Assembly: GCA_001820875.1 (NCBI GenBank) | Contig: MHRF01000010.1 | Coordinates: forward strand, 3,371-67,370 | Reading direction: 5' to 3' | Length of the DNA stretch: 64,000 bases | Source: Candidatus Taylorbacteria bacterium RIFCSPHIGHO2_01_FULL_46_22b | GTDB lineage: Bacteria > Patescibacteriota > Minisyncoccia > Phycocordibacterales > DSPV01 | In this document: positions 19,142 to 54,202 of the stretch, one piece after another | Numbering within the stretch: the stretch's first letter is position 1 | How the letters are laid out: every line of letters starts with the position of its first letter | Notes under the pieces: model-generated | Database searches by the model: none | Seen by the model: the letters and a program-made list of their open reading frames with translations, nothing else | Told to the model about the DNA's origin: nothing | Made by a program: the position numbers and the translations under genes

Positions 19142-19152
19142 TTGAATGCTGT

Positions 19153-37819: not shown

Positions 37820-37877
37820 TGAGTTTATTTTAACATACCACAAGACCCAATGACAAAAATCTTGCTATACTATCCCC

Positions 37878-38810
37878 ATGACACCCTCGAAGAAAAAAAC
37901 ACTTATTTTTCTTGTTGCGGCATTGGTAGTACTCGTACTTGGATACTTTTTAGTGTCATATCTTGGACGACCTATTAGCTATTCATCAGATACTGATCAA
38001 CTAAGTGTAAATGCAGGCAACGGACCACAAAACAATCTCACACAAGATTCAGACAGCGATGGTCTCCCTAATTGGGAAGAAGCGCTATGGAAAACTGATA
38101 GCAATAATCCTGACACAGACGGCGACGGGACATCGGATGGTGAAGAAGTAAACACCAACCGCGATCCGCTAGTAAAAGGGCCGCAAGATACACAAGTACG
38201 GTCAGAAACTGTGCCCGATACACAGGGCCCAACTGCTACTCAAAAACTTACCAACGATATCCTCTTGACCTACACTAAATTAAAGCAGAGTAGCGCGGAC
38301 GAAGAGACTCAAATAAATGCTCTGCAAGAATTGGTAGAGAAAAATCAGTTCCCGATTACTGCAAAGACATACGCCACAAAAGATTTCACCACCGTTACAG
38401 AAAACTACTCGTCCATACAAAACTACGCAAAGGACATTAGCACAACCATCACCACACTCAATCTCTCAAGCACAGAAAATGAGCTTTCGGTCTTGCAAAC
38501 GTCACTTGAAAACAACTCTGCGACAGGAATCATCTCGCTTACTACCACCGCAAACCGCTACCGTACCGCAGTAAAACAGCTTCTCGCCATGCCCGTACCG
38601 ACCGGAGCACTAGCCATCCACACAGATATTACAAACGATATGGCTCTGATGGGGGAAACAGTGAGCGCTATGAGTAATTTATATACGGATCCACTTATTT
38701 CTCTTTCAGCACTCAAACAATATCAACCCACCGCACTACGCATCGCAAACAACATGAACGCCTTGTTTGCCTACTTCAAGGCAAGTCAGACGAAATTCAC
38801 AGCACCCTAG
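37878..38810 (+). CDS. Membrane-anchored protein with Asp-rich calcium-binding-like repeats
   Basis: TM anchor LIFLVAALVVLVLGYFLVSYL, followed by DSDSDGLPNWEE...NPDTDGDGTSDGEE (thrombospondin-type-3-like DxDxDG). Confidence 0.5.
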   Translation: MTPSKKKTLIFLVAALVVLVLGYFLVSYLGRPISYSSDTDQLSVNAGNGPQNNLTQDSDSDGLPNWEEALWKTDSNNPDTDGDGTSDGEEVNTNRDPLVKGPQDTQVRSETVPDTQGPTATQKLTNDILLTYTKLKQSSADEETQINALQELVEKNQFPITAKTYATKDFTTVTENYSSIQNYAKDISTTITTLNLSSTENELSVLQTSLENNSATGIISLTTTANRYRTAVKQLLAMPVPTGALAIHTDITNDMALMGETVSAMSNLYTDPLISLSALKQYQPTALRIANNMNALFAYFKASQTKFTAP

Positions 38811-38844
38811 TAAACCCCCTGATATATCTAAAACCAATAAATAA

Positions 38845-38955
38845 GGTCCGGCAGTGGGGTTTATTTGAGAACCTCTCGGTTCTCAACACTCGTCCGTACA
38901 TTGGCGGACTCTTTGCTCTCCTCCACGGGGAAACTCCCGTTTCCCCGACCCCTTT
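38845..38955. repeat. About 100-bp double-hairpin repeat element, copy B (inverted relative to copy A)
   Basis: The reverse complement aligns with 5672-5770, sharing ggggaa(a)ggggtcgggaaacgggagtttccc and gttgagaacc...ggttctcaa. Lies just after the 37878..38810 stop and before the T4SS-like operon. Confidence 0.5.
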
Positions 38956-39053
38956 CCCCTCACACCACGCTCCTTTCATTGATTAGATAAAAAATTATCG
39001 GTGGTGTGAGTAAATCACATAGTAGTGCGTTGGTGCTTGAGGTATAATAACCA

Positions 39054-41114
39054 GTGAAACATACGGTGAACTTCTTTGTCCCAAAAAAGTTGCGGATTTT
39101 AGTCGTCGTGGCGCTTATGTGTTTGCTCGCAGCGCCCGTTAATTTCCTGTTGTCTCCAAAAACGGCCGAGGCGCAAGGACTCGTTCCTACTGGAGACTGG
39201 CTCAACACAGTATTTCAGAGCATCACAAGCGCGGCGACCTATTATGAAGAGCTGAAAGAATCCGTTCTCGACGGTCTTGCGTGGTATGCGGCAAAAATAA
39301 TCATTGAACAAATGACCTCGGAACTCGTTAACTGGATCAATGGCGGAGGAAATGGCGATCCAGCATTTATCAGTGATCCTGCGGGATTCTTTTTGGGTGC
39401 AATTGAAGCGACTGCGGGAAATATTTTACACGACTCTCCACTTGGTTTTCTCTGCGATCCTTTAAAACCGTTTGAAGCGCAGATAAAAGTTACGTTAAGC
39501 AATCGCTATAATAAAAATACTTCGGGATCACTTAACAGAAAGAACTCTTCCTGCGGCATAGATGACATTAGGGATAATTTGTCGGGTTTTTACGCAGGCA
39601 ATAACAAAGGGAAAATAACCAGTTGGGACCAGTGGCTTTCCATTACCCAAATACCCTCAAACAATATTTATGGCGCAACAATCCAAGCAGAACTTGAAAT
39701 GGATGCAGCGATAGGAGGCACACAGTTTCTTAATAAGACAACTGCTGACTGGGGACAGGGATTCCAATCGCAGGGTGAATGTACGTTAGAGAGTGAGGAA
39801 ACGGGAGCATGTTTACAGTATGCAATCGTTACCCCCGGATCATTTATAAAAGATACGCTTACTAATCAACTCGGACTTAGTGGCGATTCCTTGGTGACAG
39901 CCGACGAGATCAGTGAAATTATCGGTGCGATAGTGACACAACTATTCAATAAAGTAGCTACGGGAGGGCTCGCAGGTCTCTCAAAAGGAGGCAACAGTGC
40001 GTATACCAATCAAATAAAGGTTGACAAAAACCCCGCAGCATCTGTTAAGGCAGACGGGAAAGTAACTAAACGAACCACGAACGGCAACGGTCAGCAGGTA
40101 GACGAAGATGTAGATACAACTGAATGGAACAACGCAAACAATGCGGTAAATACTGCAATAAGAAACGAATTTGACGTGCTGTACGAGGAAGAGAATGCGA
40201 GAGCGCAAGCAAATATCCCCACCGGTGGTGGATTTGCGATTGTGGGGACACAACAACCTCGACTCGATCTCCGGAATGCAACTGCTGACCAAATCTGTAC
40301 TGACGACTTCCCAGGTACCACCGGACTATTTATAGGTTCAGCTGACCAAGCGCTTGATGGTTCGGGTACCACTGCGTCGCTCGCTAATGGATGCACCGGC
40401 ACTCCTTACTGGTGGAATGTCACTATCCCAGCAGCAACCAAACTTGATAAAGTTGAAGTGCAAGTTAATAGTGGAAAATATGGACTTGCGGGATGGCCGC
40501 CAGCAGGAGGCGGGAACAACGCACCTCCTATAGGACCATTTCTCGCACTCTACCCTCAAAACACTGCTGGACAAACAACTATTGGGAGTTGGATTTGGAA
40601 TGCTTCAGCGGGACGTTTTGAAAAAAAGCTCACCTACACAGGAGCACTCATTCAAGAAGAGTTGCCGGAGGCCCTACGCAAGATACCTATTACCAAGATC
40701 CAAATTGAATCTAACCGACAAACGGGTGCAGACAGACCGGGCTTAAGTCTTTCAGAAGTCCGCGTCTTCCGCCATCTCCTCCCTGAAATTAATGCAAGTA
40801 AAGTTCCAACATCATTGACGCAAGTACAAGCAACAGACTTCGACCCGACACAAGCAGCGTGGATTACCGCTCAATACTATCCGCTCTATAGCAATCCTGC
40901 AGTACCGATTGATCAAGATAATATCCACGTGGTTATCACGGACACCGCCACTCAAACAGTGGTACAACCAACCAATACGGCCACAGGTACCTACACACTT
41001 CTTCCGGGTACCTATCAATTCTCATACACCGCGACATCACCTGCCTCTGACAATCAAACGAGCGAAACCGTGACTGGTACAGTGCGAGTTATCGCATCGC
41101 CAACAACTCCATAA
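39054..41114 (+). CDS. Large secreted hypothetical protein (first gene of T4SS-like operon)
   Basis: 686 aa. Signal/anchor LRILVVVALMCLLAAPVNFLLSPKTAEAQG. Thr/Gly/Asn-rich. Stop 2 nt before the next gene. Confidence 0.5.
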   Translation: MKHTVNFFVPKKLRILVVVALMCLLAAPVNFLLSPKTAEAQGLVPTGDWLNTVFQSITSAATYYEELKESVLDGLAWYAAKIIIEQMTSELVNWINGGGNGDPAFISDPAGFFLGAIEATAGNILHDSPLGFLCDPLKPFEAQIKVTLSNRYNKNTSGSLNRKNSSCGIDDIRDNLSGFYAGNNKGKITSWDQWLSITQIPSNNIYGATIQAELEMDAAIGGTQFLNKTTADWGQGFQSQGECTLESEETGACLQYAIVTPGSFIKDTLTNQLGLSGDSLVTADEISEIIGAIVTQLFNKVATGGLAGLSKGGNSAYTNQIKVDKNPAASVKADGKVTKRTTNGNGQQVDEDVDTTEWNNANNAVNTAIRNEFDVLYEEENARAQANIPTGGGFAIVGTQQPRLDLRNATADQICTDDFPGTTGLFIGSADQALDGSGTTASLANGCTGTPYWWNVTIPAATKLDKVEVQVNSGKYGLAGWPPAGGGNNAPPIGPFLALYPQNTAGQTTIGSWIWNASAGRFEKKLTYTGALIQEELPEALRKIPITKIQIESNRQTGADRPGLSLSEVRVFRHLLPEINASKVPTSLTQVQATDFDPTQAAWITAQYYPLYSNPAVPIDQDNIHVVITDTATQTVVQPTNTATGTYTLLPGTYQFSYTATSPASDNQTSETVTGTVRVIASPTTP

Positions 41115-41116
41115 CC

Positions 41117-44100
41117 ATGAAAAGATTCTTCTACAAAATAAACACCTTGCGATCCAAGATTACCTTGCGAAATGCCGTGGTTGTCGTGTTGTTACTTGCA
41201 CTTGTTTCTACCGTTGCACCACATCTGGAAGTAGGGACCGCACAAGCATTTACTGGATTCAGCCCCGCTTTAACTCAAGCTGTTGCAGGAGCAGTGGGGG
41301 CAGGCGCATCTGAAGTTGGCGAGAATGCCTCTATGTTAAGCAAGGTGTATGACGCCATCTCAACACTCACAAGTCCTCTAAACGCCCTGCAAACATTTTT
41401 CACTAAAGTTCTGGGGATTATTGTCCTCACTATTATGTCGCTCGTGGTCCGCATTTCTGCGGCCATTATGGAGGGTGCAATGTTTTTGACTGCCAACATG
41501 AGCGAAGTGCTTCGGGTTGTTCCCATGGTTGATATAGGATGGGCACTGTTCCGAGATCTTGCAAACATGGTATTCATATTCATCCTTCTCTACATCGCCA
41601 TCGCCACCATTTTGAACACTGAAACAAACACACGACAAATGCTTGTTGACGTGATCATTACAGCACTCCTCATCAACTTCTCACTCTTTCTCACCAAAGC
41701 AATGGTAGACGGTTCAAACATCGTTGCACTGATGTATTACAATAAAATGAACGCTGTCCAACCAGTAGGGGGAATAGCTCGAGCCTCGCAAGAAACCACC
41801 GTGAAGCTTTTTGGACAAGAGTTAGGAGGCCAGCTTTCTCACGGTCCGACACTGATACTAATAGATGCGCTCGGTATCGCAACATTCTACGATCCAGACG
41901 CTTTCAAACAAGCAGCCGCAACATCACAAACAAATCTCACCGAGGGATGGAATCAGTTCCTTCGGGCGGCAGGAGGAACTCCTGATGCACCGTACACGGA
42001 ACTTGCACGAGTTCTACTCGGAGCTGTATTGATGCTCATTGTTGCATTTGTGTTTGCAACTGCCGGTTTATTGTTGATCATCCGTATTATTGTACTTATG
42101 TTTTTGATGATGCTCGCTCCTCTGGCATTTGTCGCACGCATATTGCCACAAGCCAAAGGACAATGGGAAAAATGGTGGAGCACGTTAATGGCAAACCTTA
42201 TTTGGGCACCAATCTATTTTGCCATGCTGTATGTAATTCTCACCGCCATCAGAGGATTAAATCGAAGCGGCACACTTGCTGGCGGACTGGGGGGGCTTGA
42301 ATCAGATATGGGAAATCTCTTGGGGTACATCTTCATTATCGTTCTCCTCTCAATGACCATCATTATTGCCAAGCAACTCGGACTTCACGGGGGAGAGATG
42401 GTGCACAAATGGTCTGAAAATGCAGCTAAGTGGGCACGTGAAAAGGTTCGACAAGGTCAAGGAGTTGTCGGACGTCACACCATTGGACGTGCAGCTCGAT
42501 ATACAGAGGAAGCTGCTCATGAATCGCCATTCTGGAATAGCGTGGTGGGATCAAAGATTCGTGAATTTACTACACAACCCCTTGCAGATGCAAAGTTTGG
42601 CGGAACAATGTCCGCATGGCAAATGAAGGAAAAGGATAAGGTCCGCCAAACCGGTCAAGTAGAGGCCGAGCGTCTGCAAAAGTTCATGCATGAAGCCGAA
42701 AAAGGAGACGCCGCCAATCCACATGTGCTAGAAGACTTGGCTATCCGATTGGCCCCCCAAACACTTGCCCACACTGATATGAGATTCCTAAGGAAACTGC
42801 CTATCGGCATACTTCCCGACACACACTTCCAAGCGCTTATGGCATCGGATAAGGTACAAAAGGATAAAGACGAGCTCGCTCGCCTACGTCTCAAGCCTAT
42901 GCAGCTTGTTCGGGACAAAGTCAGAGCTCAAACGCTTGCCACTATTATGCTTCAACAACATCCCGAGTTAAAAGACACTTATTTCGAGGCGGACGGACTG
43001 AAGCTATTCAAGAAAAAAGACTTATTGGATGCAAAGCTTGCGGAAGGGAAGGCACTCGCAGATCTTCCTGTTGAAGAAAGACTGTCACCAGCAGAAGAAA
43101 CCTTACTTGCCGAAATGAAATCAAGAGGTATTTCGTGGTCAGCAAAAGAAGAAAAAGCATTTGATCCTGCGTTCGAATTTATACGTGCCAAAAATCCAAA
43201 AGAACTTGGGCAGTTAAACCGTGTCGATCCAGACGCTATAAATGAGCTGGCACCTATCTTAAATTGGTCCCAGTTAGATCCTTTGCGTAAAAGCGACGAC
43301 ATTACCTTCAAACAACGCAACGGACGTGATGGGGGACAATTGCGCGATTACAAGGATCGAATGTTGCTTGATGCGTTAGCCATCGAATATGGGGTATCCC
43401 TCACTGATGCTAACGGAAAACTACGTACGCTTGAAGAGCGCTACGACGATTTTATGAAAGTAAACGGTCTGCTCCGCAAGAAAGTGCGCCAGTTTGGGGT
43501 TGAGTCGATTGAAAATGCGGCGCACTCAAAACACAGCGAATATACCCAAAAAGACATCGATCTGTGGGGTAAATTGAAAGCAATAAGCCCTGCACAAAGA
43601 GATATTGCCCGCCACCTGTTTGAGCAACACCACGAGGGACGGAGTGACTCGGAGCTTACTAAGGGGCGTACTTATCAGCGAAATGACGCAATTAACTTTG
43701 CATCACTCGGAGCTGGTTCAGTACCTTTCCTCATAGATCGAGACAACGACAAGAAAGAGGAACAGGGAGGACAACTGCTAACAGCTATTGCAGAAGATAA
43801 TTTGACGGAACAAAACAAGGAATTCCTTGCCAAGGTGTGGTGGGATCGCGATGCAGATAAATACCTGAAAAATTGGGAGGAGATTGCTCGACGGAATGGG
43901 TGGGAAAACAATGAAAGAGTCAAACTCGCGTTAAAATGGAAAAATGAGGGGGAAGCAGGCAAGAAAAAGTTTAAAGAAGCGGTTAAAGCCATTAAGCATA
44001 CGGATTTCTTTGCGGGTTCAACAACAACCGGAGGAACTAAGTGGGATGAGTTAATTGCAGAGGATGCACCGGCAACTGGAGGCGCAGGAGGCAGGGGAGG

Positions 44101-44254
44101 AGCTGCTGCAGCGCCAGCCGGGAGACCGAGAGTGGCTCCGCCAGCATCAGGGACACCACCACTGCGCGTAAACCGAGGAGGACAAAGTGGAGCAAACCAG
44201 CAAGGACAACAAAATCAATCGGGTCAAAATCCGACTGGAACAAATAATCCTTAA
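41117..44254 (+). CDS. VirB6/TrbL-like polytopic membrane protein with long hydrophilic C-terminal domain
   Basis: 1045 aa. At least 6 TM helices in the first ~450 aa (e.g. LGIIVLTIMSLVVRISAAI, MVFIFILLYIAIATIL, LLGAVLMLIVAFVFATAGLLLIIRIIVLMFLMMLAPLAF). A charged ~500-aa tail ends in a Gly/Gln-rich low-complexity region. This architecture is typical of VirB6/TrbL in Gram-positive-type T4SS. Confidence 0.55.
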   Translation: MKRFFYKINTLRSKITLRNAVVVVLLLALVSTVAPHLEVGTAQAFTGFSPALTQAVAGAVGAGASEVGENASMLSKVYDAISTLTSPLNALQTFFTKVLGIIVLTIMSLVVRISAAIMEGAMFLTANMSEVLRVVPMVDIGWALFRDLANMVFIFILLYIAIATILNTETNTRQMLVDVIITALLINFSLFLTKAMVDGSNIVALMYYNKMNAVQPVGGIARASQETTVKLFGQELGGQLSHGPTLILIDALGIATFYDPDAFKQAAATSQTNLTEGWNQFLRAAGGTPDAPYTELARVLLGAVLMLIVAFVFATAGLLLIIRIIVLMFLMMLAPLAFVARILPQAKGQWEKWWSTLMANLIWAPIYFAMLYVILTAIRGLNRSGTLAGGLGGLESDMGNLLGYIFIIVLLSMTIIIAKQLGLHGGEMVHKWSENAAKWAREKVRQGQGVVGRHTIGRAARYTEEAAHESPFWNSVVGSKIREFTTQPLADAKFGGTMSAWQMKEKDKVRQTGQVEAERLQKFMHEAEKGDAANPHVLEDLAIRLAPQTLAHTDMRFLRKLPIGILPDTHFQALMASDKVQKDKDELARLRLKPMQLVRDKVRAQTLATIMLQQHPELKDTYFEADGLKLFKKKDLLDAKLAEGKALADLPVEERLSPAEETLLAEMKSRGISWSAKEEKAFDPAFEFIRAKNPKELGQLNRVDPDAINELAPILNWSQLDPLRKSDDITFKQRNGRDGGQLRDYKDRMLLDALAIEYGVSLTDANGKLRTLEERYDDFMKVNGLLRKKVRQFGVESIENAAHSKHSEYTQKDIDLWGKLKAISPAQRDIARHLFEQHHEGRSDSELTKGRTYQRNDAINFASLGAGSVPFLIDRDNDKKEEQGGQLLTAIAEDNLTEQNKEFLAKVWWDRDADKYLKNWEEIARRNGWENNERVKLALKWKNEGEAGKKKFKEAVKAIKHTDFFAGSTTTGGTKWDELIAEDAPATGGAGGRGGAAAAPAGRPRVAPPASGTPPLRVNRGGQSGANQQGQQNQSGQNPTGTNNP

Positions 44255-44259
44255 AAACC

Positions 44260-45207
44260 ATGGATGCTGAAAAACGAAAATTACTGGACGAAAAATTCTA
44301 CTTGCTTGCAAAACCCTTGCAGGACGTGATTCTTGATGAAGACGAGAAACTAGAAACTACAGTTGATCTCATAGTACAGAAGTACAAACTTGAACTCGAT
44401 ACTGCACGAATACTGGACGATGAAATCGTTATGGTACTTGGTGGATTTACCAACCCTAAGGACTTTATACGAGCACTTAGTGGAAAACTTGGGACAGATG
44501 CAAGTAAAGCACCCGCAATTGCGCAAGAGATAAACGAAAAAATATTCCGCGCGGTCAAAGACGACCTGCAAAATCTCTATGGACTTCCTATCCCGAAACA
44601 ACCTCAACAAAAACCTTCGCTTGCCACCGAACTTGAAGAAGATGTTGGGCTACGAAAACAACTAGAGCAGGCAAAATCTGCTGAACAGAAACGACCTCTG
44701 TCGGCAGTGTTACAAGATGCGTTACGTGCAGGAGGAAAAGAGACTGAATCTGGAATAACGAATAATGAATTTAGGGAAGAGCAAAATTCAAAATTCAAAA
44801 TTCAAAATTCTGCTAATGAAATTGAACCTCTGCGTACTATGGAACGTGATATGGAATCCGTACGGCATACTGGAACTTCCCGTCCAAGACCAGCGTTTAT
44901 ACCTCCAACTCCAAGAGACAGAGAATCTGGAATAACGAATAATGAATTTAGGGAAGAGCAACTAAAAGAAGAGAAGCCTCCGGTCCCACCAAAACCCCCA
45001 GCTTCTACACCCTTTACCCAAAGCCCAAGACTTCCAGTCCCTCCGCCACCACGTGCACCGAGACAAGAACCCGCCGAAGAGCCCGAGGAGCAACTGAGTC
45101 GCGAAGATATCTTGCGTGGCATTGAAGATCCATCGAGTATTCCACGCGACCGTACCAATAACTCGCCGGTGTACAACGCGGATCCGTATAGAGAACCCAC
45201 AGAGTAG
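44260..45207 (+). CDS. Proline-rich repeat protein (T4SS-like operon)
   Basis: 315 aa. A 39-bp perfect direct repeat encodes ESGITNNEFREEQ twice. A (caaaatt)x4 heptanucleotide tract sits at 44782-44809. The C-terminus is Pro-rich (PPVPPKPPASTPFTQSPRLPVPPPPRAP). Confidence 0.5.
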   Translation: MDAEKRKLLDEKFYLLAKPLQDVILDEDEKLETTVDLIVQKYKLELDTARILDDEIVMVLGGFTNPKDFIRALSGKLGTDASKAPAIAQEINEKIFRAVKDDLQNLYGLPIPKQPQQKPSLATELEEDVGLRKQLEQAKSAEQKRPLSAVLQDALRAGGKETESGITNNEFREEQNSKFKIQNSANEIEPLRTMERDMESVRHTGTSRPRPAFIPPTPRDRESGITNNEFREEQLKEEKPPVPPKPPASTPFTQSPRLPVPPPPRAPRQEPAEEPEEQLSREDILRGIEDPSSIPRDRTNNSPVYNADPYREPTE

Positions 45208-45212
45208 GGGGA

Positions 45213-45232
45213 AGCGAAGAGCGACTAGCGAG
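45213..45232. repeat. IR motif copy 1 (agcgaagagcgactagcgag)
   Basis: Near-copy (3 mismatches in 20) of 45704-45723; inverted relative to 45269-45284. Confidence 0.5.
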
Positions 45233-45268
45233 CAGAAAAGTTAGTTGTTACACTTGGTAGTACTATTC

Positions 45269-45284
45269 GCTAATCGCTTTTCAC
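45269..45284. repeat. IR motif copy 2 (gctaatcgcttttcac)
   Basis: One mismatch to 46103-46118; reverse complement of the agcgaaaagcgattag motif. Confidence 0.5.
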
Positions 45285-45297
45285 TTGTCGCTACGTT

Positions 45298-45705
45298 ATG
45301 CGCTTTCAAGTCCCACAATTTATTGAGATAGAAGATAAGGTATTTGGACCATTTACCTTTAAGCAATTCGTATATATCGCCGGCGGAACAGGTATCTGCT
45401 TTCTGCTCTTATATACACTGCCGAGATTTCTCGCGATCATAGCGGTTATCCCTGTCGCCGCACTTTCCCTTGCGCTCGCCTTTTACCGAATAAACAACAA
45501 ACCGTTCGTGCAAATGGTGGAAGCTTTCTTCAGATACATTATCGGCACACGTCTCTATTTGTGGCACAGAACAGATAAACAAGTAACCGGAAAAGCACCG
45601 CTCGCTCGGCAATACGAACAAATAAAAATCCCTACGCTCGAAGGAAGCAAACTAAAAGATATTCAGTGGAGTTTGGGAGTGAAGAAAGATGGAGTTAGCG
45701 AATAG
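45298..45705 (+). CDS. PrgI/VirB3-like small membrane protein
   Basis: 135 aa with two adjacent TM helices (YIAGGTGICFLLLYTL; FLAIIAVIPVAALSLALAFY), positioned directly upstream of the VirB4-family ATPase as in Gram-positive conjugation loci. Confidence 0.5.
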   Translation: MRFQVPQFIEIEDKVFGPFTFKQFVYIAGGTGICFLLLYTLPRFLAIIAVIPVAALSLALAFYRINNKPFVQMVEAFFRYIIGTRLYLWHRTDKQVTGKAPLARQYEQIKIPTLEGSKLKDIQWSLGVKKDGVSE

Positions 45706-45719
45706 CGAAAAGCGATTAG
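45704..45719. repeat. IR motif copy 3 (agcgaaaagcgattag)
   Basis: Perfect 16-bp inverted repeat with 46103-46118, flanking the four-helix-bundle gene. Overlaps the stop of the PrgI-like gene. Confidence 0.6.
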
Positions 45720-45740
45720 AGAGCAAAAATACTGAAAAAT

Positions 45741-46106
45741 GTGCCGAAACTAAAGACATACAAGGAGTTAATCGTATGGCAGAAATCAGTGACAATTGTT
45801 GAACATGTGTATACACTCACCAAAAACTTCCCTAAGGATGAAATATACGGACTGACTAGCCAGATGAGACGAGCGGCAATTTCTATACCATCTAATATCG
45901 CGGAGGGATGGTCGCGAGAAACTCGAGGAGATTTTGCCTATTTCTTGAGAATCGCCCGCGGATCTAGTTCAGAACTCGAAACTCAACTAGAAATTAGCCA
46001 GCGATTAACGCTTATAACCGATACACGTTATAATGAAGTGAGTGAATTGCTTTCTGAAGTATCACGCATGTTGAATGCAATCTTGCGTAAATTACCTAAT
46101 CGCTAA
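45741..46106 (+). CDS. Four-helix-bundle protein of the 23S-rRNA-IVS-protein / DGR Avd family
   Basis: 121 aa. LIVWQKSVTIVEHVYTLTKNFPKDEIYGLTSQMRRAAISIPSNIAEGWSRETRGDFAYFLRIARGSSSELETQLEISQRL matches the GLTSQ.RRAA.SIPSNIAEG...DF..FL.IA.GS..ELETQL signature. Confidence 0.8.
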   Translation: MPKLKTYKELIVWQKSVTIVEHVYTLTKNFPKDEIYGLTSQMRRAAISIPSNIAEGWSRETRGDFAYFLRIARGSSSELETQLEISQRLTLITDTRYNEVSELLSEVSRMLNAILRKLPNR

Positions 46107-46118
46107 TCGCTTTTCGCT
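46103..46118. repeat. IR motif copy 4 (ctaatcgcttttcgct)
   Basis: Perfect reverse complement of 45704-45719. Confidence 0.6.
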
Positions 46119-46126
46119 TTTTCCCT

Positions 46127-46774
46127 ATGGCAGCATCTTCAAAATCATCACAGGAGTTTGTCCCCGTTAAAGAAGTTCGAGACGGCGTATTGGTCCTGCA
46201 GGATAATTCACTCCGAGCGGTTCTGATGGTTTCCTCTATTAATTTTGCTCTCCAATCGGAAGAAAGCCAGACGGCTATCGTGGCTCAATTCCAAAATTTC
46301 CTAAACTCCCTAGACTTTTCTGTCGAAATTTCCATGCAGTCCCGAAAGATGGATATAAAACCTTACCTTTCTCTCCTTGAGGAACGGTACCAGAAGCAAC
46401 AGAGCGAGCTTATGAAAATACAAACTCGAGAGTATATAGAGTTCATCAAAACCTTTACAGACAATACAAATATTATGACGAAGACATTCTTCATAACTGT
46501 CCCGTATGGTGCAACCATGGTTTCGCTCAAGAAAAACCCTCTGGAAACAATCAGCGGGTTTGTAAGAAAATCTGATACATCTAAAAAAACCAAAGGGGAA
46601 GTTGATGAATTCGAGGAACACAAAGAACAATTGCAACAACGTCTTGCGGTAGTAGAACAAGGGTTAGTCCGATGCGGTCTTAAAACCGCTCGGCTCGGAT
46701 CAGAAGAACTTATCGAACTCTTTTACAGACTTTTCAACCCCGGAGAGGCACAACAGCGAATACCGACTTCATAA
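46127..46774 (+). CDS. VirB4/TraE-family conjugative ATPase, N-terminal domain (upstream of in-frame TAA)
   Basis: VPVKEVRDGVLVLQDNSLRAVLMVSSINFALQSEESQTAIVAQFQNFLNSLDFSVEISMQSRKMD matches the N-terminal domain of Gram-positive VirB4 homologues (PrgJ/TraE/TcpF type). Ends at TAA 46772-46774, in the same frame as the next ORF. Confidence 0.7.
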   Translation: MAASSKSSQEFVPVKEVRDGVLVLQDNSLRAVLMVSSINFALQSEESQTAIVAQFQNFLNSLDFSVEISMQSRKMDIKPYLSLLEERYQKQQSELMKIQTREYIEFIKTFTDNTNIMTKTFFITVPYGATMVSLKKNPLETISGFVRKSDTSKKTKGEVDEFEEHKEQLQQRLAVVEQGLVRCGLKTARLGSEELIELFYRLFNPGEAQQRIPTS

Positions 46775-46780
46775 AAATTT

Positions 46781-48610
46781 ATGGGCATTTTTGACTTTTT
46801 AAAAAAGAAAGAGCAGGCACTACCGTCGATTCTCCCTGGGGAAATCTATGAGGCAGCTTCGCTTGAACTCAAAGATATTATCGCTCCGGGGGCACTCAAA
46901 ATCAGTCCTCGTCAGCTAAACTTGGGGGAGAAAATAGCACGAACATTCTTTGTGGTTTCCTATCCGCGTTATCTCAATGACAACTGGTTCTCACCGGTCA
47001 TCAACCTCGACAAAGTATTTGACATCGCTATCCACGTACATCCGATAGACACTTCGACAATTCTCCGAACATTCCAAAAGAAGGTGGCCGAGGTACAAAG
47101 CCAAATCTCCATGCGCGAAGACAAGGGGTTGGTGCGCGATCCCAAACTCGACACGGCTTACCAAGATCTGGAACAGTTGCGAGATTCGCTCCAGCAAGCG
47201 CAGGAAAAACTATTTGAAGTCGGATTGTATGTCACTCTGTATGGAAGTACCGAGGAGGAATTGACCAAATTGGAAACCGAAATAAAAACCATGCTCGACG
47301 CACGCCTAGTGTATCTAAAACCCGCGCTCTTTCAGCAAGAACAAGGTTTTATAAGCACGGTGCCCTTGGGGGACGACCAACTGCTGGTACACAACAAACT
47401 CAACACGTCTCCGCTATCAAGTATTTTCCCTTTTGTATCGTTCGACCTCACGTCAGACAAAGGAATATTGTATGGTATCAATCGACATAACGCCTCTCTC
47501 GTGCTGTTCGATCGATTTTCACTTGAGAACTACAACTCAATCACATTCGCGAAATCCGGATCAGGAAAATCGTACGCAACCAAACTTGAAATCTTACGCA
47601 CACTTATGTTTGATGCTGATGTGATTGTCATCGATCCCGAACGCGAGTATGAACACCTTGCGGAAGTTACCGGCGGGAAATATTTCAATATTTCGCTCAA
47701 TTCAGAACATCACATAAATCCCTTCGATCTTCCACCCACACGGGAAGGGGAATCGGCGGCAGACGTACTTCGATCAAACATAATCAACCTTGTCGGCCTG
47801 TTTCGAATCATGCTCGGCGGGCTTTCGCCTGAAGAAGATGCGCTGATTGATCGCGCGATTACCGAAACATACGCCCTGAAAGATATTACTCCTGACAGTG
47901 ATTTCTCAAAAATGTCCGCGCCATTGATGTCAGATTTTGAAATGGTACTTTCCGGTATGGACGGTAGCACATCACTCGTGCAGAAACTTTCGAAGTACAC
48001 CAAGGGTACGTGGTCAGGTTTCATCAACCAACCGTCAAACGTCAATATCAATGATCGGTTTATTGTATTCTCCGTGCGAGATATGGAAGACGAACTTAAA
48101 CCAGTCGCCATGTACATTGTCATGCACTTTATTTGGAATGCAATTAGACAGAATCTCCGCAAGCGCCTCCTCGTCATCGACGAAGCATGGTGGATGATGA
48201 AATCAGAAGACACTGCTTCGTTTCTTTTGTCGCTTGCGAAACGTGGGCGCAAATATTTTTTGGGACTTGCCACTATCACTCAAGATGTTGATGATTTCCT
48301 CCGATCCCCCTACGGCCTCCCGATACTCACCAACTCATCAATTCAGATGCTCCTGAAACAATCACCGACCTCTATTGAACGCATCAAAGAAGTGTTTAGT
48401 CTTACCGACGAAGAAAAATACCTTCTGCTTGAATCGGATGTCGGAGAGGGAATCTTCTTTGTTGGACTCAAACATGTAGCCATAAAAATAATCGCATCAT
48501 ACACCGAAGATCAAATCATCACCTCTGATCCTTCACAACTCTTGGCAATTAAAAAAGCAAAAAAAGAGTTTCTTGCACAAGGAGGAGATAGCGGTACTCC
48601 TCTCAATTAA
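46781..48610 (+). CDS. VirB4/TraE-family conjugative ATPase, central and ATPase domains (downstream of in-frame TAA)
   Basis: IAPGALKISPRQLNLGEKIARTFFVVSYPRYL (conserved VirB4 block), Walker A ITFAKSGSGKSYATK and Walker B LLVIDEAWWMM. Frame identical to 46127..46774, separated only by TAA-AAA-TTT. Confidence 0.8.
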   Translation: MGIFDFLKKKEQALPSILPGEIYEAASLELKDIIAPGALKISPRQLNLGEKIARTFFVVSYPRYLNDNWFSPVINLDKVFDIAIHVHPIDTSTILRTFQKKVAEVQSQISMREDKGLVRDPKLDTAYQDLEQLRDSLQQAQEKLFEVGLYVTLYGSTEEELTKLETEIKTMLDARLVYLKPALFQQEQGFISTVPLGDDQLLVHNKLNTSPLSSIFPFVSFDLTSDKGILYGINRHNASLVLFDRFSLENYNSITFAKSGSGKSYATKLEILRTLMFDADVIVIDPEREYEHLAEVTGGKYFNISLNSEHHINPFDLPPTREGESAADVLRSNIINLVGLFRIMLGGLSPEEDALIDRAITETYALKDITPDSDFSKMSAPLMSDFEMVLSGMDGSTSLVQKLSKYTKGTWSGFINQPSNVNINDRFIVFSVRDMEDELKPVAMYIVMHFIWNAIRQNLRKRLLVIDEAWWMMKSEDTASFLLSLAKRGRKYFLGLATITQDVDDFLRSPYGLPILTNSSIQMLLKQSPTSIERIKEVFSLTDEEKYLLLESDVGEGIFFVGLKHVAIKIIASYTEDQIITSDPSQLLAIKKAKKEFLAQGGDSGTPLN

Positions 48611-48616
48611 TCAACC

Positions 48617-49627
48617 ATGGAAGGAGAAGTTCACAAAAGAAGCAACATTGAATGGTTCTTCTTGATTGCAATTGCAATTACTATTGATCTTGTGCAAATA
48701 GGACTTGATCTCCTTGTGGGAGTTGGCATAGTCATTAATCGATTTATTGATCTCATTGTTGGCCCAGCACTTTTTATGTACTGCGCCGTCACGCATATTA
48801 AATTAACTGTAGGTAGAACCGTAAGTATTCTCGGCACTATCGTCGGTGAGATGATTCCCGTTATTGATATCGCTCCATTTTGGACAGCTGATGTTATCTT
48901 CATTATGCTCTCGGTCAAAGCGGAAGAAGGAAACAAACTGGCAAAGGTTGGATTGCTTGCAACTGGCATCGCTGGAGCGGCAGCAGGAGGAGCATTCAAG
49001 GGAAGCAAAAAACCACCGTCAGGAGCGATGGTTGTCAGAAAGGGTGGCCCCAGCCCCCAAACAGCTTCCGGCTTTTCTCGATCTCAACCAAAAGTAAATA
49101 TCCCCAAAAGTAAAAACTGGCAGGCGGCGGGTTTTGAAACAGAGGAAAATGCGAACGAGTGGCACACCGCTCTGATGTCATCAGGTAATTCTCGAATTGT
49201 TCAATCCGAAAAGGCTCGGGCAACTATGGGGCGAATGTGGAAAGACGCTGGCTTTACCCCCGATCAAGCGCGTGAATATATCGCGCAGGGCGTTGTAAAT
49301 CCACAGGCAGCACGTGGGTACAATCTGCCAAGAAGGGCGGAGGTACAACCTCCTCCGATACCGCAGGGTCAGCGCGTGCCCCCGAAAATAAACACCGGAG
49401 GAAAACCGCCGGTAATTCCACCGCCAAAAATCAATGATACACGAAGACCTCCGGTCATTCCACCGCCCAGACTCACTGGAGAAGAACCTACAAAAACAGA
49501 GCGCTTACGCAACTATGCAAAGGAGAAATTGTACGAAAAGGGTAAACAAAAAGTCGAGGATGTAGAGGTGATCCGTGGAAATGCTCCTAGAAAGGAGGAG
49601 CAAGAAGAAGAGGTGGATAGTGCATAA
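48617..49627 (+). CDS. Hypothetical polytopic membrane protein with Pro-rich C-terminal repeats
   Basis: About 4 TM helices in the first 120 aa. C-terminal PPKINTGGKPPVIPPPKINDTRRPPVIPPPRL repeats. Confidence 0.5.
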   Translation: MEGEVHKRSNIEWFFLIAIAITIDLVQIGLDLLVGVGIVINRFIDLIVGPALFMYCAVTHIKLTVGRTVSILGTIVGEMIPVIDIAPFWTADVIFIMLSVKAEEGNKLAKVGLLATGIAGAAAGGAFKGSKKPPSGAMVVRKGGPSPQTASGFSRSQPKVNIPKSKNWQAAGFETEENANEWHTALMSSGNSRIVQSEKARATMGRMWKDAGFTPDQAREYIAQGVVNPQAARGYNLPRRAEVQPPPIPQGQRVPPKINTGGKPPVIPPPKINDTRRPPVIPPPRLTGEEPTKTERLRNYAKEKLYEKGKQKVEDVEVIRGNAPRKEEQEEEVDSA

Positions 49628-49660
49628 GTAAACACGGATGGCTATGGTAAAATAGAAACA

Positions 49661-50671
49661 ATGGTTTTGAAACACTTAGTGGGTAAAACTCTACTTGTTC
49701 TGGTGCTCACCGCACTGTGTTCAGTGAGCAGTACCAGCGCTCACGCACAACTCTTGGGTGGAAATGCTAACCCTTTGATACTAATCACCATACCAGCGTA
49801 CCCTCGCCCAAATTCAGATGTTACCGTTGAGGTACGGAGCACATCTGTTGAAATCGATGTATCAGATATTGGATGGCTCGAAGACGGCGAGCTATCAGAA
49901 AGTGGGCTAGGAAAAACCTCTCATCGCACCCATGTCGGCGACAAGGGAAGTTCGCAAACAGTTACCGCAATCGTACACACACCAGAAGGAAGAACCTATG
50001 AACAAACCATACTGATCCGGCCGCAATCAATCAGCCTCATTTGGGAATCTTCTTCAAGCGTGCCTCCTTTTTATCGAGGCAAAGCACTGTACACGAGCAC
50101 AAACCCACTCACCATAACTGCTATTCCAGAAATCTTTGATGAGTTGGGTGAGCCAATAAGCGCGTCTCAACTTTCATTTATATGGAAATTAAATAACAAA
50201 ACACTGTCAAACAAATCAGGGTACGGCAAAAGTTCTCTCTCGCTCACAGAACCGATTCTTCGGACACCAGCGACCATATCGGTGACCGTACAGAGTCGTG
50301 ACGGGCTTTCGGTCACTACAGGCTCACTCTCAATAGACCAATCACAGCCTTTGGTCCTAATCTACGAAAATAGTCCTTTATACGGAATTCTCTTTAACCA
50401 AGCAATCTTAAATACTTTTACGCTCCGTGGTACCGAGGCAGGAGTAGAAGCATTTCCATATTTTTTTAGCGGCATGCGCCAAAAATTGGGCTTCAGTTGG
50501 AATGTGAATGGAAGAGATATTGAGGGACTTTCAAGTTCCTATATCACTCTGCGAAATACAACAGGACAAAGTGGGACCGCAACTGCTTTTATATCAATCA
50601 CTAACCCATCAAGCTCCTTCGAAAGTGCGGGCAATGGTTTCAATATAAACATCACTCAACCTGAACAATGA
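49661..50671 (+). CDS. Hypothetical secreted protein
   Basis: 336 aa. Signal peptide LLVLVLTALCSVSSTSAHAQ. Overlaps the next gene by 4 nt. Confidence 0.5.
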   Translation: MVLKHLVGKTLLVLVLTALCSVSSTSAHAQLLGGNANPLILITIPAYPRPNSDVTVEVRSTSVEIDVSDIGWLEDGELSESGLGKTSHRTHVGDKGSSQTVTAIVHTPEGRTYEQTILIRPQSISLIWESSSSVPPFYRGKALYTSTNPLTITAIPEIFDELGEPISASQLSFIWKLNNKTLSNKSGYGKSSLSLTEPILRTPATISVTVQSRDGLSVTTGSLSIDQSQPLVLIYENSPLYGILFNQAILNTFTLRGTEAGVEAFPYFFSGMRQKLGFSWNVNGRDIEGLSSSYITLRNTTGQSGTATAFISITNPSSSFESAGNGFNINITQPEQ

Positions 50672-51060
50672 AATACGTAACCGCAGTTTATATTGTAGCC
50701 CTCTGTTGCACATTTTCTTTTGTAACCACCGTGCCACCGGCACAGGCAGAAGATGTAAATTATGTCCCGCTTGCTCCTATCGCCAATGTTAATCCTTCAG
50801 GAGCAACAAGTGTCAATGTTGGAAATTACATGACACAACTGTTCAAACTTGCAATCGGAATCGCCGCAGGTCTTGCAGTTATGCGAATTGCGTATGCTGG
50901 AATAAAATACATGCTTAGTGATGTGATCACCCAAAAATCAGATGCGGTGCAAATGATCAAGAACGCAGTCGGAGGGCTTCTGCTTGCCCTATGCGCATGG
51001 CTAATACTGTACACGATAGGAGGAGACAGCCTTACCAATCTTAACTTCAACAGTATATGA
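50668..51060 (+). CDS. Candidate VirB2/TrbC-like pilin-type small membrane protein
   Basis: 130 aa. Signal peptide (AVYIVALCCTFSFVTTVPPAQA), then two hydrophobic helices (LFKLAIGIAAGLAVMRIAYAGI; GGLLLALCAWLILYTIGG). Size and topology match conjugative pilins; no sequence-level proof. Confidence 0.4.
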   Translation: MKYVTAVYIVALCCTFSFVTTVPPAQAEDVNYVPLAPIANVNPSGATSVNVGNYMTQLFKLAIGIAAGLAVMRIAYAGIKYMLSDVITQKSDAVQMIKNAVGGLLLALCAWLILYTIGGDSLTNLNFNSI

Positions 51061-52310
51061 CGCGTAACCGAGCACTGATTATTATTGTGGGAGTAGTTGC
51101 ACTGGTACTGATTGCGCTTGCTATTTTTTATTTTTTCTTCAGAAATGCTGGTGCACCTTACGAACCAGCTCCTATTATTGACATAAATAACCCATCCCTC
51201 CCTATCAGCCAAAATGCGTCTAATACAAGTATGGGAGGAGGAAATACGGGAATTACGGAAGAAAACCAATTCCAAAATATCCCTCAAACTTTCCAACAAC
51301 TGCGCCTGCTCTCAAGTGTACCAGTCGCTGGTGCTACACTATTTGAGAAAAATGCGGATACGTTTGTACATTACATAGAGCGGGCAACGGGGCATATATA
51401 CGAAGTACAAGCTTCTCAAAAACAAACGCCTTACCGAATTTCCAACACTACTATACCTAAAATCTATGAGGCTTTTTGGACGCAAAACGGACGTGGCATT
51501 ATTGTCCGGTACTTGAAAGAGGGGAGTGACGATATACAAACGTTTTATGCCGGACTCAAAGCAAACACGTCGACATCGAGCGAACAAACTCTTGATGACG
51601 GCACTTTTCTTCCTAATAATATCAGCGACCTTACAGTTTCACCGGCGCAAGACAAAATTTTTTATCTCTCTCGAAATGGAACACAGACGGTAGGAATTCG
51701 ATCCAATCCTAACGGAACAAGTAAAAACCAGCCTTTCTCTTCTTCTGCTCATGAATGGCTTGTGTCTTGGCCAAGCGCGACAAATATCTCGCTGAACACG
51801 CGACCGTCTGCTGAAGTGTCTGGTTTCCTTTTTTTCCTCAATCCATCAACAGGCGGATTGCAAAAAATACTCTCGGGGGTGCAAGGACTTACTAGTCTCT
51901 CCAACAACAATGGGTCACTAGTTATTTACTCGGAAAGCAATGGAACAGGTGTTGCGCTTAAATTATTTGATGTGAAAAAAGGAACTGCAACAGACCTTGG
52001 GGTGCGCACACTCCCAGAAAAATGCGTCTGGAGCAAAAAAGTGAACACTACTTTATTCTGTGCGGTACCCGATTCTGTACCCAGCGGCGCATACCCTGAT
52101 TCGTGGTATCAAGGACAGATATCTTTTACTGATAATTTGTGGGCAATCGACACCAAGACAGGAACAACGAAAATTATTATGACCCCTCAAAGCATAGCTC
52201 AACAAATAATGGACATTGTTCAACCAGTGTTAAGTGAAAAAGAAAACTACATCCTTTTCACTAATAAAAAAGATTTAAACCTCTGGTTATTGAGTCTGTC
52301 CGATTTGTAA
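51057..52310 (+). CDS. Hypothetical membrane-anchored extracytoplasmic protein (last gene of T4SS-like operon)
   Basis: 417 aa. N-terminal TM anchor ALIIIVGVVALVLIALAIFYFFF. Ser/Thr/Asn-rich beta-rich domain. Confidence 0.5.
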   Translation: MTRNRALIIIVGVVALVLIALAIFYFFFRNAGAPYEPAPIIDINNPSLPISQNASNTSMGGGNTGITEENQFQNIPQTFQQLRLLSSVPVAGATLFEKNADTFVHYIERATGHIYEVQASQKQTPYRISNTTIPKIYEAFWTQNGRGIIVRYLKEGSDDIQTFYAGLKANTSTSSEQTLDDGTFLPNNISDLTVSPAQDKIFYLSRNGTQTVGIRSNPNGTSKNQPFSSSAHEWLVSWPSATNISLNTRPSAEVSGFLFFLNPSTGGLQKILSGVQGLTSLSNNNGSLVIYSESNGTGVALKLFDVKKGTATDLGVRTLPEKCVWSKKVNTTLFCAVPDSVPSGAYPDSWYQGQISFTDNLWAIDTKTGTTKIIMTPQSIAQQIMDIVQPVLSEKENYILFTNKKDLNLWLLSLSDL

Positions 52311-52321
52311 GTGAAAAATTG

Positions 52322-52822
52322 TTATAGGGAAGCACTTATATCTCCAACGTACTTGAGTACTATGCGGCGCTGGCTTCCAGTACCTTCTGAATGGGTTTCA
52401 ATATCAGGAACCCCTTCGAAGAAGGTGTGTATGATCATCCTCTCATAAGAAGACATCGGATCCATCTCAACAGTTGTTTTAAATGATCGAGCTCGTTCAG
52501 CGAGAATCTGCGCTTTGGTACGTATCTCACCAAGCAGTCGATCGTGATAATCATTTACATCAACGTAAAAATCGACAGGATTTGCATCAGTTGAGACTGC
52601 ATTGAGCTTCTTGCCAACAATACGCTTTACCAAATGATTAATCGCTGAAATGTGGGCACCCCGTGTTCCTATAAGGATACTCGAATCAGAACTCTTAATA
52701 ACAAAAGCAAGTCGATCTCCTTGTTCAATCACAGTAATTTCCTGAAAAGGCACCCCCAAGCGATTGAGTAGTGTTTCTATAATTTGTCTTATGTGTGTCT
52801 GATGTTCCATATTATTTCCCAC
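52322..52822 (-). CDS. jag: Jag/KhpB-type KH + R3H RNA-binding protein
   Basis: 166 aa. KH-like region and R3H-like C-terminus (…GTGSQRRIVLKYV). Overlaps the yidC stop by 11 nt, the classic yidC-jag pair. Confidence 0.8.
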   Translation of the reverse strand: MGNNMEHQTHIRQIIETLLNRLGVPFQEITVIEQGDRLAFVIKSSDSSILIGTRGAHISAINHLVKRIVGKKLNAVSTDANPVDFYVDVNDYHDRLLGEIRTKAQILAERARSFKTTVEMDPMSSYERMIIHTFFEGVPDIETHSEGTGSQRRIVLKYVGDISASL

Positions 52823-53567: not shown

Positions 53568-53903
53568 CTATTCAAGTTTGAGTCTCTTCATGGCTTCGGT
53601 GACAAGACCCACTACCAAAGGCTGTAATTTGATGTAAGAAGTGGGTGTCTCCTTGCGCAGGTATATAACACCCTCAAGTGTGGGGAGTGGGTGTATAGAG
53701 TGTAGGATCTCATATATCCGCCTCCGAAGAGTATTACGGGAAACAGCTAGGGGGGCTGCAACACTTGGAATGACTACAGAGAAACGGCCTCCAGCAGAGG
53801 ATCGAGAAAACCTCATAGATAGGCCATTATTAGTAACAACTAAGGAAGACCGTCGTACTATTTGAAAACGGCTCCGATCCAGACGCTTGGTGCGCCTAAG
53901 CAT
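53568..53903 (-). CDS. rnpA: Ribonuclease P protein component
   Basis: 111 aa. Basic N-terminus LRRTKRLDRSRFQIV..., RNR-like motif region. Sits downstream of rpmH. Confidence 0.85.
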   Translation of the reverse strand: MLRRTKRLDRSRFQIVRRSSLVVTNNGLSMRFSRSSAGGRFSVVIPSVAAPLAVSRNTLRRRIYEILHSIHPLPTLEGVIYLRKETPTSYIKLQPLVVGLVTEAMKRLKLE

Positions 53904-54037: not shown

Positions 54038-54202
54038 CATAAAAAGGAGTATAGCAAAAAAATAACCTTTGGCAACCATATCCTGTTTTTCCACTAAAAA
54101 ACACTATCCACATACTATAAACAACTTACGAACACATTCATTGTTGTTAGACAAGTTTGCTAACTATCCAAGCAGTATATAATGGTGCAACAAAACTAAT
54201 TT

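Follow-up and report, generated by a model that had tools for sequence, protein, structure and literature searches.

Organization of the operon

The DNA analyzed here is a 64-kb stretch (the window) of the genome of a Candidatus Taylorbacteria bacterium (Paceibacteria, Candidate Phyla Radiation (CPR)), and the object of this work is an operon related to type IV secretion systems (T4SSs), found between positions 39054 and 52310. This region contains eleven tightly packed open reading frames (ORFs), all on the plus strand and separated by spacers of -4 to +90 nt, and includes a conserved core of eight genes detectable by tblastn. In order, they encode a large secreted protein (g1), an extended VirB6 (g2), a soluble Pro-rich protein (g3), a PrgI/VirB3-like protein, the product of an inserted gene, a TrsD-like protein, a VirB4-family ATPase, a small polytopic membrane protein (g8), a secreted repeat protein (g9), a VirB2-like pilin and a membrane-anchored protein (g11). 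The operon is bracketed by ksgA and uvrD on the upstream side and by jag-yidC-rnpA-rpmH-dnaA-dnaN on the downstream side; the dnaA start is situated 5.6 kb downstream of the virB4 stop, and the G+C content is 0.43-0.48 over the operon and its flanks alike. It is very probable that this operon is a chromosomal, vertically inherited T4SS of the Patescibacteria type, i.e. the Paceibacteria form of a derivative of the mating-pair formation (MPF) class FATA conjugation systems, which is not conjugative and most likely acts as a symbiont-host conduit.

An earlier note on this DNA had described eleven co-directional, packed genes next to an ori-proximal jag-yidC-rnpA-rpmH block. All eleven were recovered and the flank was borne out, with dnaA and dnaN beyond it. 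Nine of the eleven ORFs were described in that note; the inserted gene (45741-46106) and the TrsD-like ORF (46127-46774) had been left undescribed. Promoter and terminator scans of the region showed no excess of sites over shuffled sequence.

Conservation of the operon in other species

The window proteins were compared by tblastn with one genome per species, which gave 80 loci, all from CPR or other metagenome-assembled genomes. Among them, 42 loci with the full 10 kb on each side constituted the full-length set. Eight core genes are detectable by tblastn (g1, VirB6, PrgI, TrsD, VirB4, g9, pilin and g11), and all eight were found in the same order and on the same strand in 36 of the 42 full-length loci from other species. 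In this set, dnaA is present downstream in 41 loci and ksgA upstream in 37, so the gene order is kept at the origin in relatives. The slots of g3 and g8 were mostly missed by tblastn, yet they are occupied by ORFs. The earlier note had considered that VirB4 might prove to be an isolated gene among unrelated members; this possibility fails, because dozens of species share the same gene arrangement next to the origin.

The median identity to the window proteins decreases from VirB4 (77%, 80 species) to TrsD (54%), PrgI (47%), the pilin (39%), g11 (34%), g9 (31%), g1 (29%), VirB6 (28%) and a protein with TSP3 repeats encoded just upstream of g1 (25%). In the same loci, the corresponding values are 60% for DnaA, 47% for KsgA, 45% for DnaN and 43% for YidC. 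Since VirB4 (77%) exceeds DnaA (60%) and the extracytoplasmic proteins reach only 25-39%, the motor is under stronger constraint than the replication initiator, whereas the surface parts diverge rapidly.

Motor genes

The ORF 45298-45705 (plus strand) encodes a small membrane protein with two transmembrane (TM) segments side by side, found in 76 loci. It matched the PrgI family PF12666 with an expect value (E) of 2.3e-10 and 41.3 bits, above the gathering score of 27, and this profile check upheld the VirB3 assignment of the earlier note. Downstream, the ORF 46127-46774 (plus strand) corresponds to the N-terminal domain of VirB4 as its own polypeptide; it matched VirB4_plasma (E 2.9e-13), TrsD/TraD (E 1.2e-5) and TraC_F_IV (E 3.4e-5), and is labelled PF26593 TraC-like in precomputed matches. 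It is followed by the ORF 46781-48610 (plus strand), encoding a VirB4-family ATPase of 609 aa (C-terminal domain and linker) of the FATA/CD1110 type. The VirB4 assignment was likewise sustained when the profile was run, as the protein scored 378.7 bits against NF045971 conju_CD1110 (cut-off 325; E 5.5e-113), in addition to a match with PF19044 (E 6.5e-28). Its Walker A (GSGKS) and Walker B (VIDEAW) motifs are both intact. Among the 120 best matches listed in a protein search, the identity was 77-100%, and all those bearing a source name came from Taylorbacteria, Paceibacterota, Parcubacteria or Patescibacteria. A protein of Candidatus Taylorbacteria bacterium RIFCSPHIGHO2_01_FULL is 100% identical to the window VirB4, which puts the window in a Paceibacteria genome. 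The operon contains a FATA-type VirB4 with TrsD-like and VirB3/PrgI neighbours, as expected for the Patescibacteria clade of T4SSs.

In the window, virB4 continues the frame of the TrsD-like ORF after TAA AAA TTT, i.e. TAA plus two codons, a configuration that resembles a nonsense mutation. Together with the unrelated gene inserted in the operon, this feature would fit a decaying, functionless relic of an old conjugative element in which a nonsense mutation had split virB4. However, the TrsD-like protein (about 212 aa) and VirB4 (about 604 aa) are encoded by separate ORFs in all 77 related loci where this junction was examined, and all three frame relations are seen at the junction, the two ORFs being 1-6 nt apart or overlapping by ATGA. 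Stop-codon readthrough and a pseudogene at the in-frame TAA were both rejected for this reason. Furthermore, VirB4 is more conserved than DnaA, its Walker motifs are preserved and every conserved slot holds an intact ORF. The decayed remnant is therefore refuted by the junction frames and by the conservation of VirB4 above DnaA, and its probability is practically nil. Because the two ORFs are separate in 77 loci, with a junction in every frame and short spacers or an ATGA overlap, the VirB4 split is a true ancestral two-gene arrangement with tight coupling. Quiñonero-Coronel et al. 2025 (PMC12102498), who surveyed 3035 genomes, report the same separate TrsD arrangement in Patescibacteria and in pGO1.

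Putative membrane channel and pilin

The second ORF of the operon, g2 (41117-44254, plus strand), encodes a polytopic membrane domain (about residues 1-460) with 6-7 TM segments, all located in the first 420 residues, followed by a hydrophilic tail of about 580 aa. The earlier note had called it VirB6/TrbL-like, and this call was supported through its TM topology and its relatives: 7 of 47 g2 orthologs matched Pfam TrbL/VirB6 (PF04610, best E 3.6e-6), and the best PDB match of the ortholog profile was TrwI, the VirB6 of plasmid R388 (E 0.013). By this transitive evidence, a VirB6 is present near virB4, as in the other T4SSs of the Patescibacteria clade. The polytopic core and the long tail place g2 in the "extended VirB6" class, defined by a polytopic core of 5 or more hydrophobic helices and a large C-proximal hydrophilic domain (PMC12857230). 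It differs from this class in that its tail is hypervariable and aligns solely with the closest relative; no recognizable domain was found in it and no conservation was detectable past that relative.

In an ENA assembly of the same strain (L082:2181-5272), the gene calls split the extended VirB6 into ORFs of 490 and 540 aa, near the point where the membrane domain gives way to the hydrophilic tail. Either the assembly is wrong here or the tail is separated in a natural variant.

The ORF 50668-51060 (plus strand) encodes a VirB2-like T4SS pilin in a minimal form of 130 aa, with a signal peptide and two hydrophobic helices. The window protein matched PF18895 with E 1e-5 and 25.9 bits, i.e. 0.7 below the gathering score of 26.6, and the Mbov_0395 pilin-like family with E 7.2e-5. 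Among 46 orthologs, 42 matched PF18895 (best E 2.2e-11) and 4 matched TrbC/VirB2, so that the VirB2 candidate of the earlier note was retained, and a VirB2-like pilin is encoded near virB4, as in the Patescibacteria clade. Most orthologs are longer (200-430 aa); the pilin domain usually occupies the N-terminus or its vicinity, and 100-300 aa of variable sequence are added at the C-terminal end. Examples of orthologs are L021:13418-14650 and L070:5354-7021. Single pilin orthologs bear Peptidase_S8, VanY or SLT domains, which would tie a wall-active enzyme to the pilin.

Accessory families

Six accessory families occupy fixed positions across Paceibacteria: the TSP3 protein, g1, g3, g8, g9 and g11. 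The first one is encoded at 37878-38810 (plus strand) by a gene that lies upstream of the region delimited in the earlier note. Its product is a membrane-anchored protein with a single N-terminal TM segment, calcium-binding TSP3 repeats (Pfam TSP3_bac, E 5.4e-5) and a helical domain. This gene precedes g1 in 33 related loci; in the 32 loci where both ORFs were called, the two are separated by a median of 5 nt. For this reason, the conserved unit starts at 37878 rather than at 39054, and the TSP3 gene is probably the first gene of the conserved cluster; the ORFs previously assigned to 39054-52310 stand, but the start of the operon probably has to be moved upstream by this gene.

The largest accessory protein is g1 (39054-41114, plus strand), a secreted protein of 686 aa and a candidate host-contact or adhesin component, whose gene is always directly upstream of VirB6. 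Its start codon is GTG, with TATAAT 4 nt before it; the public gene call puts the start 21 codons downstream. In the protein, a conserved helical domain with putative disulfides (about residues 65-310) is followed by a C-terminal part that varies. In the N-terminal 300 residues or so, four Cys are nearly invariant and the motifs WINxGFxGxPxF, NNPYGAY and TPGxVI are recognized. The conserved domain gave no Pfam, PDB-sequence or PDB-fold match, profile searches yielded nothing usable, and window g1 had zero Pfam matches. Similarly, a homologous-protein search returned 3 matches, with the single sequence and with a profile alike, and an AlphaFold2 model of the N-terminal domain from a 5-sequence alignment reached a predicted confidence (pLDDT) of 35. 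Nevertheless, a HMMER scan of 1.84 billion cluster representatives retrieved 4032 relatives of this domain at E<=1e-3; it is located near the N-terminus in all of the best 150 of them, in proteins of 300-1060 aa.

A minority of g1 orthologs, counted per protein, contain F5/8 type C (galactose-binding), bacterial Ig-like, PKD or PASTA domains; by the same count, lectin, Ig or PASTA domains occur in about 15 of the 85 members that were sampled. The lectin and Ig domains suggest that g1 may recognize the host. In addition, DUF4141 was matched by 3 of about 130 members scanned (best E 1.4e-6, scored per protein). According to the gene lists of PMC10434189, the DUF4141 gene of Bacteroides conjugative transposons has traG (VirB4) on one side and traJ on the other, and these three matches give a faint hint of an old T4SS-specific origin of g1.

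The ORF g3 (44260-45207, plus strand) encodes a soluble, cytoplasmic protein with 11% Pro and no TM segment, in which a helical N-terminal domain of about 100 aa is followed by a Pro-rich linker. It was recognized by slot homology: in 58 loci, the ORFs that follow VirB6 and precede PrgI belong to a single homologous family, which has a nearly invariant DPYREP motif at the C-terminus and for which profile searches gave no Pfam and no PDB match. Inside the window gene, a 49-nt direct repeat (44736-44784 and 44913-44961, 177 nt apart and 92% identical) duplicates the peptide ESGITNNEFREEQ.

The ORF g8 (48617-49627, plus strand) encodes a small polytopic membrane domain of about 100 aa, with 3-4 TM segments within residues 16-98, and a Pro-rich tail. 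This tail is unusually long in the window (336 aa in total, versus 111-362 aa in relatives, mostly below 200). In the slot between VirB4 and g9, one family accounts for 54 of the 57 sequences (window and 56 loci), and the slot is absent in about 11 loci. No Pfam match was obtained for g8, and profile searches against Pfam and PDB sequences produced nothing usable. A linear motif N-x-x-G-[VI]-R-x-P, considered as a shared feature of the tails of g8 and g2, was dropped, as it occurs in only 4 of the 57 g8-family proteins and nowhere else.

Two further accessory proteins are encoded on either side of the pilin. The product of g9 (49661-50671, plus strand; 74 loci) has a signal peptide and consists of three homologous repeats of about 100 aa, which align pairwise in hhalign with probabilities of 84-96%. 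Their profile weakly matched the Ig domains of phage Hoc (E 0.023), and the repeats are probably Ig-like. The product of g11 (51057-52310, plus strand; 61 loci) is anchored by a single N-terminal TM segment and has an ectodomain that resembles the TolB beta-propeller, as the ortholog profile matched twelve chains of TolB propellers with E 4.9e-5 to 1e-3.

Search for conjugation functions

In addition to the operon, 40 ORFs outside it, which represent nearly every long non-nested ORF of the window, were scanned with Pfam. No VirD4/TraG-type coupling protein (T4CP) and no relaxase were found among the scanned ORFs of the 64-kb window, and none of the 40 contained an SLT or CHAP domain of the VirB1 type. 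No VirB8, VirB9, VirB10 or VirB11 match was obtained among the window ORFs with Pfam or NCBIfam. Within the operon, the window members did not match SLT, and neither they nor their orthologs matched CHAP, NlpC or VirB8. The lack of VirD4, relaxase and VirB1 asserted in the earlier note was thus observed again, with the reservation that two proteins related to the cell wall are encoded nearby. The first (32513-33655, minus strand), 5.4 kb upstream of the operon, combines LysM and Peptidase_M23. The second (36614-37843, minus strand) is a secreted TIG/PG_binding_1 protein with a Cys-rich C-terminus, whose gene occurs in only 12 of the 42 full-length loci. Both are candidates for a VirB1-like wall remodelling; in PMC12102498, VirB1-like matches of Patescibacteria are described as often M23/LysM, and as associated with virB4 in Paceibacteria.

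Conjugative MPF-FATA systems are recognized by a relaxase and a VirD4/TcpA-type T4CP, and the 64-kb window contains neither. Similarly, sequence searches did not detect the VirB1-like hydrolase and the VirB8-like protein (NTF2 fold) of conjugative T4SSs and integrative and conjugative elements (ICEs), nor, in the window, the VirB7/VirB9/VirB10 core and the VirB11 of diderm MPF-T systems. None of the marks of a mobile element (border integrase, variable site, odd composition) was seen, and the recombinase gene nearest to the operon, of the Xer type, is 15 kb away. The operon occupies a chromosomal site near dnaA with neither relaxase nor T4CP nearby; because of this absence and of the fixed housekeeping location, it is not a mobile conjugation module. 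This agrees with the non-conjugative contact apparatus that the earlier note had deduced from the missing relaxase and T4CP, and with the published view (PMC10633639, PMC12102498).

A working conjugation system exporting DNA would still be conceivable if the relaxase, the coupling protein and the origin of transfer (oriT) were encoded at other chromosomal sites, as happens in some ICEs whose genes are scattered. The window VirB4 is closest to the conjugative CD1110/TraC families, the window is only 64 kb of the genome and VirD4 homologues exist in most Patescibacteria genomes, usually far from virB4 (PMC12102498). However, neither relaxase nor T4CP was found in the window, the housekeeping site is fixed across species without border integrase, and the G+C content is that of the flanks. 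According to the survey, relaxases are almost absent from Patescibacteria (103 of 3035 genomes), and in Southlakia epibionticum a distant t4cp homologue is non-essential whereas the T4SS genes are essential (PMC12102498). In addition, no coupling or relaxase protein was recognized in the Southlakia T4SS (PMC10633639). Conjugation is therefore regarded as quite improbable for this operon.

Comparison with known systems

Patescibacteria account for much of bacterial diversity and grow attached to other microbes, a lifestyle for which their T4SS is among the few machines shown to be essential. Several likenesses link the window operon to the T4SSs of these bacteria, as described in PMC12102498 and for Southlakia epibionticum (SEML1_0006-0019, PMC10633639). 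It shares with them VirB4 and an adjacent TrsD-like ORF, PrgI/VirB3, VirB6 and a VirB2-like pilin, and a chromosomal location with neither relaxase nor T4CP nearby. In the survey, the Patescibacteria VirB4 clade is nested in MPF-FATA, TrsD is the most abundant companion, PrgI/VirB3, VirB6 and VirB2-like pilins are found near virB4, and the Paceibacteria T4SS is situated near dnaA, dnaN, rnpA, ksgA and rpmH (PMC12102498). In contrast to Southlakia, which has a 6-gene pilin array, the window contains a single pilin gene, and its virB4 is not followed by a peptidase or lysozyme gene. Furthermore, the survey text available does not name the TSP3 protein, g1, g3, g8, g9 and g11 as components.

The earlier note had presented the operon as a candidate for an incompletely described secretion system. 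This claim was abandoned: a paper of 2025 (PMC12102498) had already described the class with its TrsD/PrgI/VirB6/VirB2 content, its location near dnaA and the missing relaxase. Since all elements of the interpretation are contained there and the essentiality was reported in Wang et al. 2023, the locus is a member of a kind of system already described in 2023-2025 and adds no new kind. What it adds is the gene-by-gene layout of the Paceibacteria form, the conservation gradient and six conserved accessory families without annotation. Among these orphan families, the large secreted g1 family is the most notable addition.

As for Firmicutes, CTn2/CD1110 and the Prg/Pcf system of pCF10 share with the window the best-scoring VirB4 family (NF045971) and the gene order, VirB6-VirB3-VirB4 corresponding to the order PrgH-PrgI-PrgJ of pCF10. 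The differences are that counterparts of the PrgK/CD419 hydrolase, the VirB8-like PrgL/PrgD, PcfC, the relaxase and the PrgB adhesin were not found in the window, and that the pilin is an addition in the window system. The Trs system of pGO1/pSK41 is plasmid-borne and conjugative, with a relaxase and a T4CP. In this staphylococcal system (MPF-FATA subclass TrsC-TrsD-TrsE), TrsD is also a separate protein encoded just before the ATPase, with a VirB3-like protein upstream. In contrast to the window, Trs has no VirB6 homologue and the Gram-positive classes have no pilin genes, according to PMC12102498; the TrsD match of the window is also weak (25 bits for a cut-off of 200).

Finally, a small pilin-like protein and a VirB4 also coexist in a monoderm in the Mycoplasma ICE (Mbov_0395 and Mbov_0397). 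The corresponding NCBIfam matches (pilin, E 7.2e-5; VirB4, 1.8e-77; TrsD-like, 2.9e-13) are all below the family cut-offs, and the Mycoplasma genes differ in that they belong to a mobile ICE.

Proposed function of the system

On the basis of these likenesses, VirB3/PrgI would tether the TrsD/VirB4 motor to the membrane at the VirB6 channel. The motor could then extract the VirB2-like pilin and polymerize it into a tube or pilus. The TSP3 protein, g1, g9 and g11 would build or decorate the wall-spanning and distal, host-contacting part, and substrates or partners might be recruited by g3 and by the cytoplasmic tails of g8 and VirB6. The apparatus would most likely be a contact-dependent conduit between symbiont and host, used for the export of effectors or for the uptake of host macromolecules. 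The conduit view, in either direction, is current in the field (PMC10633639, PMC12102498, PMC12857230). Wang et al. 2023 (PMC10633639) reported that a Saccharibacterium cannot grow as an epibiont without its T4SS and the pilins, and a preprint (10.64898/2026.06.21.733656) describes tubular structures at the parasite-host interface that may be T4SS pili.

Several points weigh against this interpretation. Taken alone, the window g2 protein has no significant family match, so that the VirB6 call is transitive through its orthologs, and the window pilin falls just short of its gathering score. Neither a VirB8-like nor a VirB1-like member was found in the operon, and a T4CP or a relaxase could be encoded elsewhere in the genome. 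The function, the substrate and the direction of transport are proposed by homology alone, and the putative roles of g1, g9, g11 and the TSP3 protein derive entirely from localization signals, domain content and conserved position.

The direction of transport is at stake in another explanation, in which the operon encodes an uptake machine comparable to ComB of Helicobacter or Ced of Sulfolobales, importing host DNA, RNA or other macromolecules for a cell unable to make nucleotides. ComB is not known to include a coupling protein or a relaxase, and neither is seen near the window operon. Moreover, the ATPase is weakly similar to CedB (E 2.4e-9), a FEMS review (PMC12857230) speculates on intake from the host, and the preprint cited above (10.64898/2026.06.21.733656) makes the case for host RNA as food and points to a monophyletic VirB4. 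Against this explanation, the scores for CedB (36 bits for a cut-off of 700) and CedD (17 bits for 600) are far under the family cut-offs, and their partners, like other ComB- or Ced-specific components, were not found. In Southlakia, deletion of comEC abolishes competence without loss of viability (PMC12857230), hence the essential role does not lie in DNA uptake through ComEC. We regard a dedicated uptake machine as rather unlikely, and it would be a variant of the symbiont-host conduit, differing in the direction of transport, and not another identity.

Within the symbiont-host conduit, g1 might be a missing distal T4SS component, analogous to the VirB5 tip or to the PrgB adhesin, which would dock on the pilin or on VirB6 via its conserved domain. 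In many members, swappable C-terminal modules reading host glycans or wall would then set the host range and, together with g9, g11 and the TSP3 protein, g1 would constitute a new extracellular module of monoderm T4SSs. We put this forward as a tentative idea, more doubtful than probable. No adhesin such as PrgB was detected according to the survey (PMC12102498).

Inserted gene and hairpin-rich spacer

The ORF 45741-46106 (plus strand), between prgI and trsD, is an unrelated insertion and no part of the T4SS. It encodes a protein of the 23S rRNA intervening-sequence protein (IVP) family, a four-helix bundle of the Avd-like type (PF05635, E 4.5e-41; TIGR02436). The ORF is flanked by a 22-nt inverted repeat (45701-45722 and 46100-46121, 91% complementary), whose arms form the closing stem in both the minimum free energy and the centroid RNA folds; a third copy is present at 45263-45293. 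By tblastn, 10 of the 80 loci contain an IVP-related gene, called as an ORF in 9 of them. Most of these genes occupy other intergenic sites of the operon, either ahead of prgI, between prgI and trsD or between trsD and virB4. Exact inverted repeats of at least 13 nt flank the ORF in 5 of the 9 loci; their sequences are unrelated and several derive from short tandem motifs. The cassette looks like an element of the rRNA intervening-sequence type (stem and ORF) that landed in an mRNA operon, and it might lead to RNase III cleavage between prgI and trsD.

Between the TSP3 gene and g1, a spacer of 243 nt (38811-39053, plus strand) contains three strong hairpins (RNA fold of -79.6 kcal/mol, z = -5.4). 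The earlier note had placed a hairpin repeat element here. The hairpins are real, but the repeat is not: a search with one arm of the third hairpin found no other copy within the window, and the spacer has no Rfam match. Relatives carry about 5 nt at this point, and the spacer is a peculiarity of the lineage to which the window belongs.

Neighbouring genes

Upstream of the operon, uvrD (33786-35765) and ksgA (35801-36601) precede the TIG/PG_binding_1 gene mentioned above. Downstream, jag/khpB (52322-52822), yidC (52812-53540), rnpA (53568-53903) and rpmH (within 53906-54094) are on the minus strand, and dnaA (54203-55570) and dnaN (55780-56880) on the plus strand. At the window edge, the ORF 63384-63947 (minus strand) encodes the C-terminal part of a PilB/GspE-type ATPase (T2SSE, E 2e-48), which suggests that type IV pilus genes are present within about 11 kb of the T4SS operon.

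Three tRNA genes were also found in the window (18135-18205, 18882-18952 and 19070-19141). The last two lie within a mechanically called ORF of 603 aa (18844-20655), inside which the real gene encodes a protein of the CCA-adding enzyme/poly(A) polymerase family, with a start near 19300.

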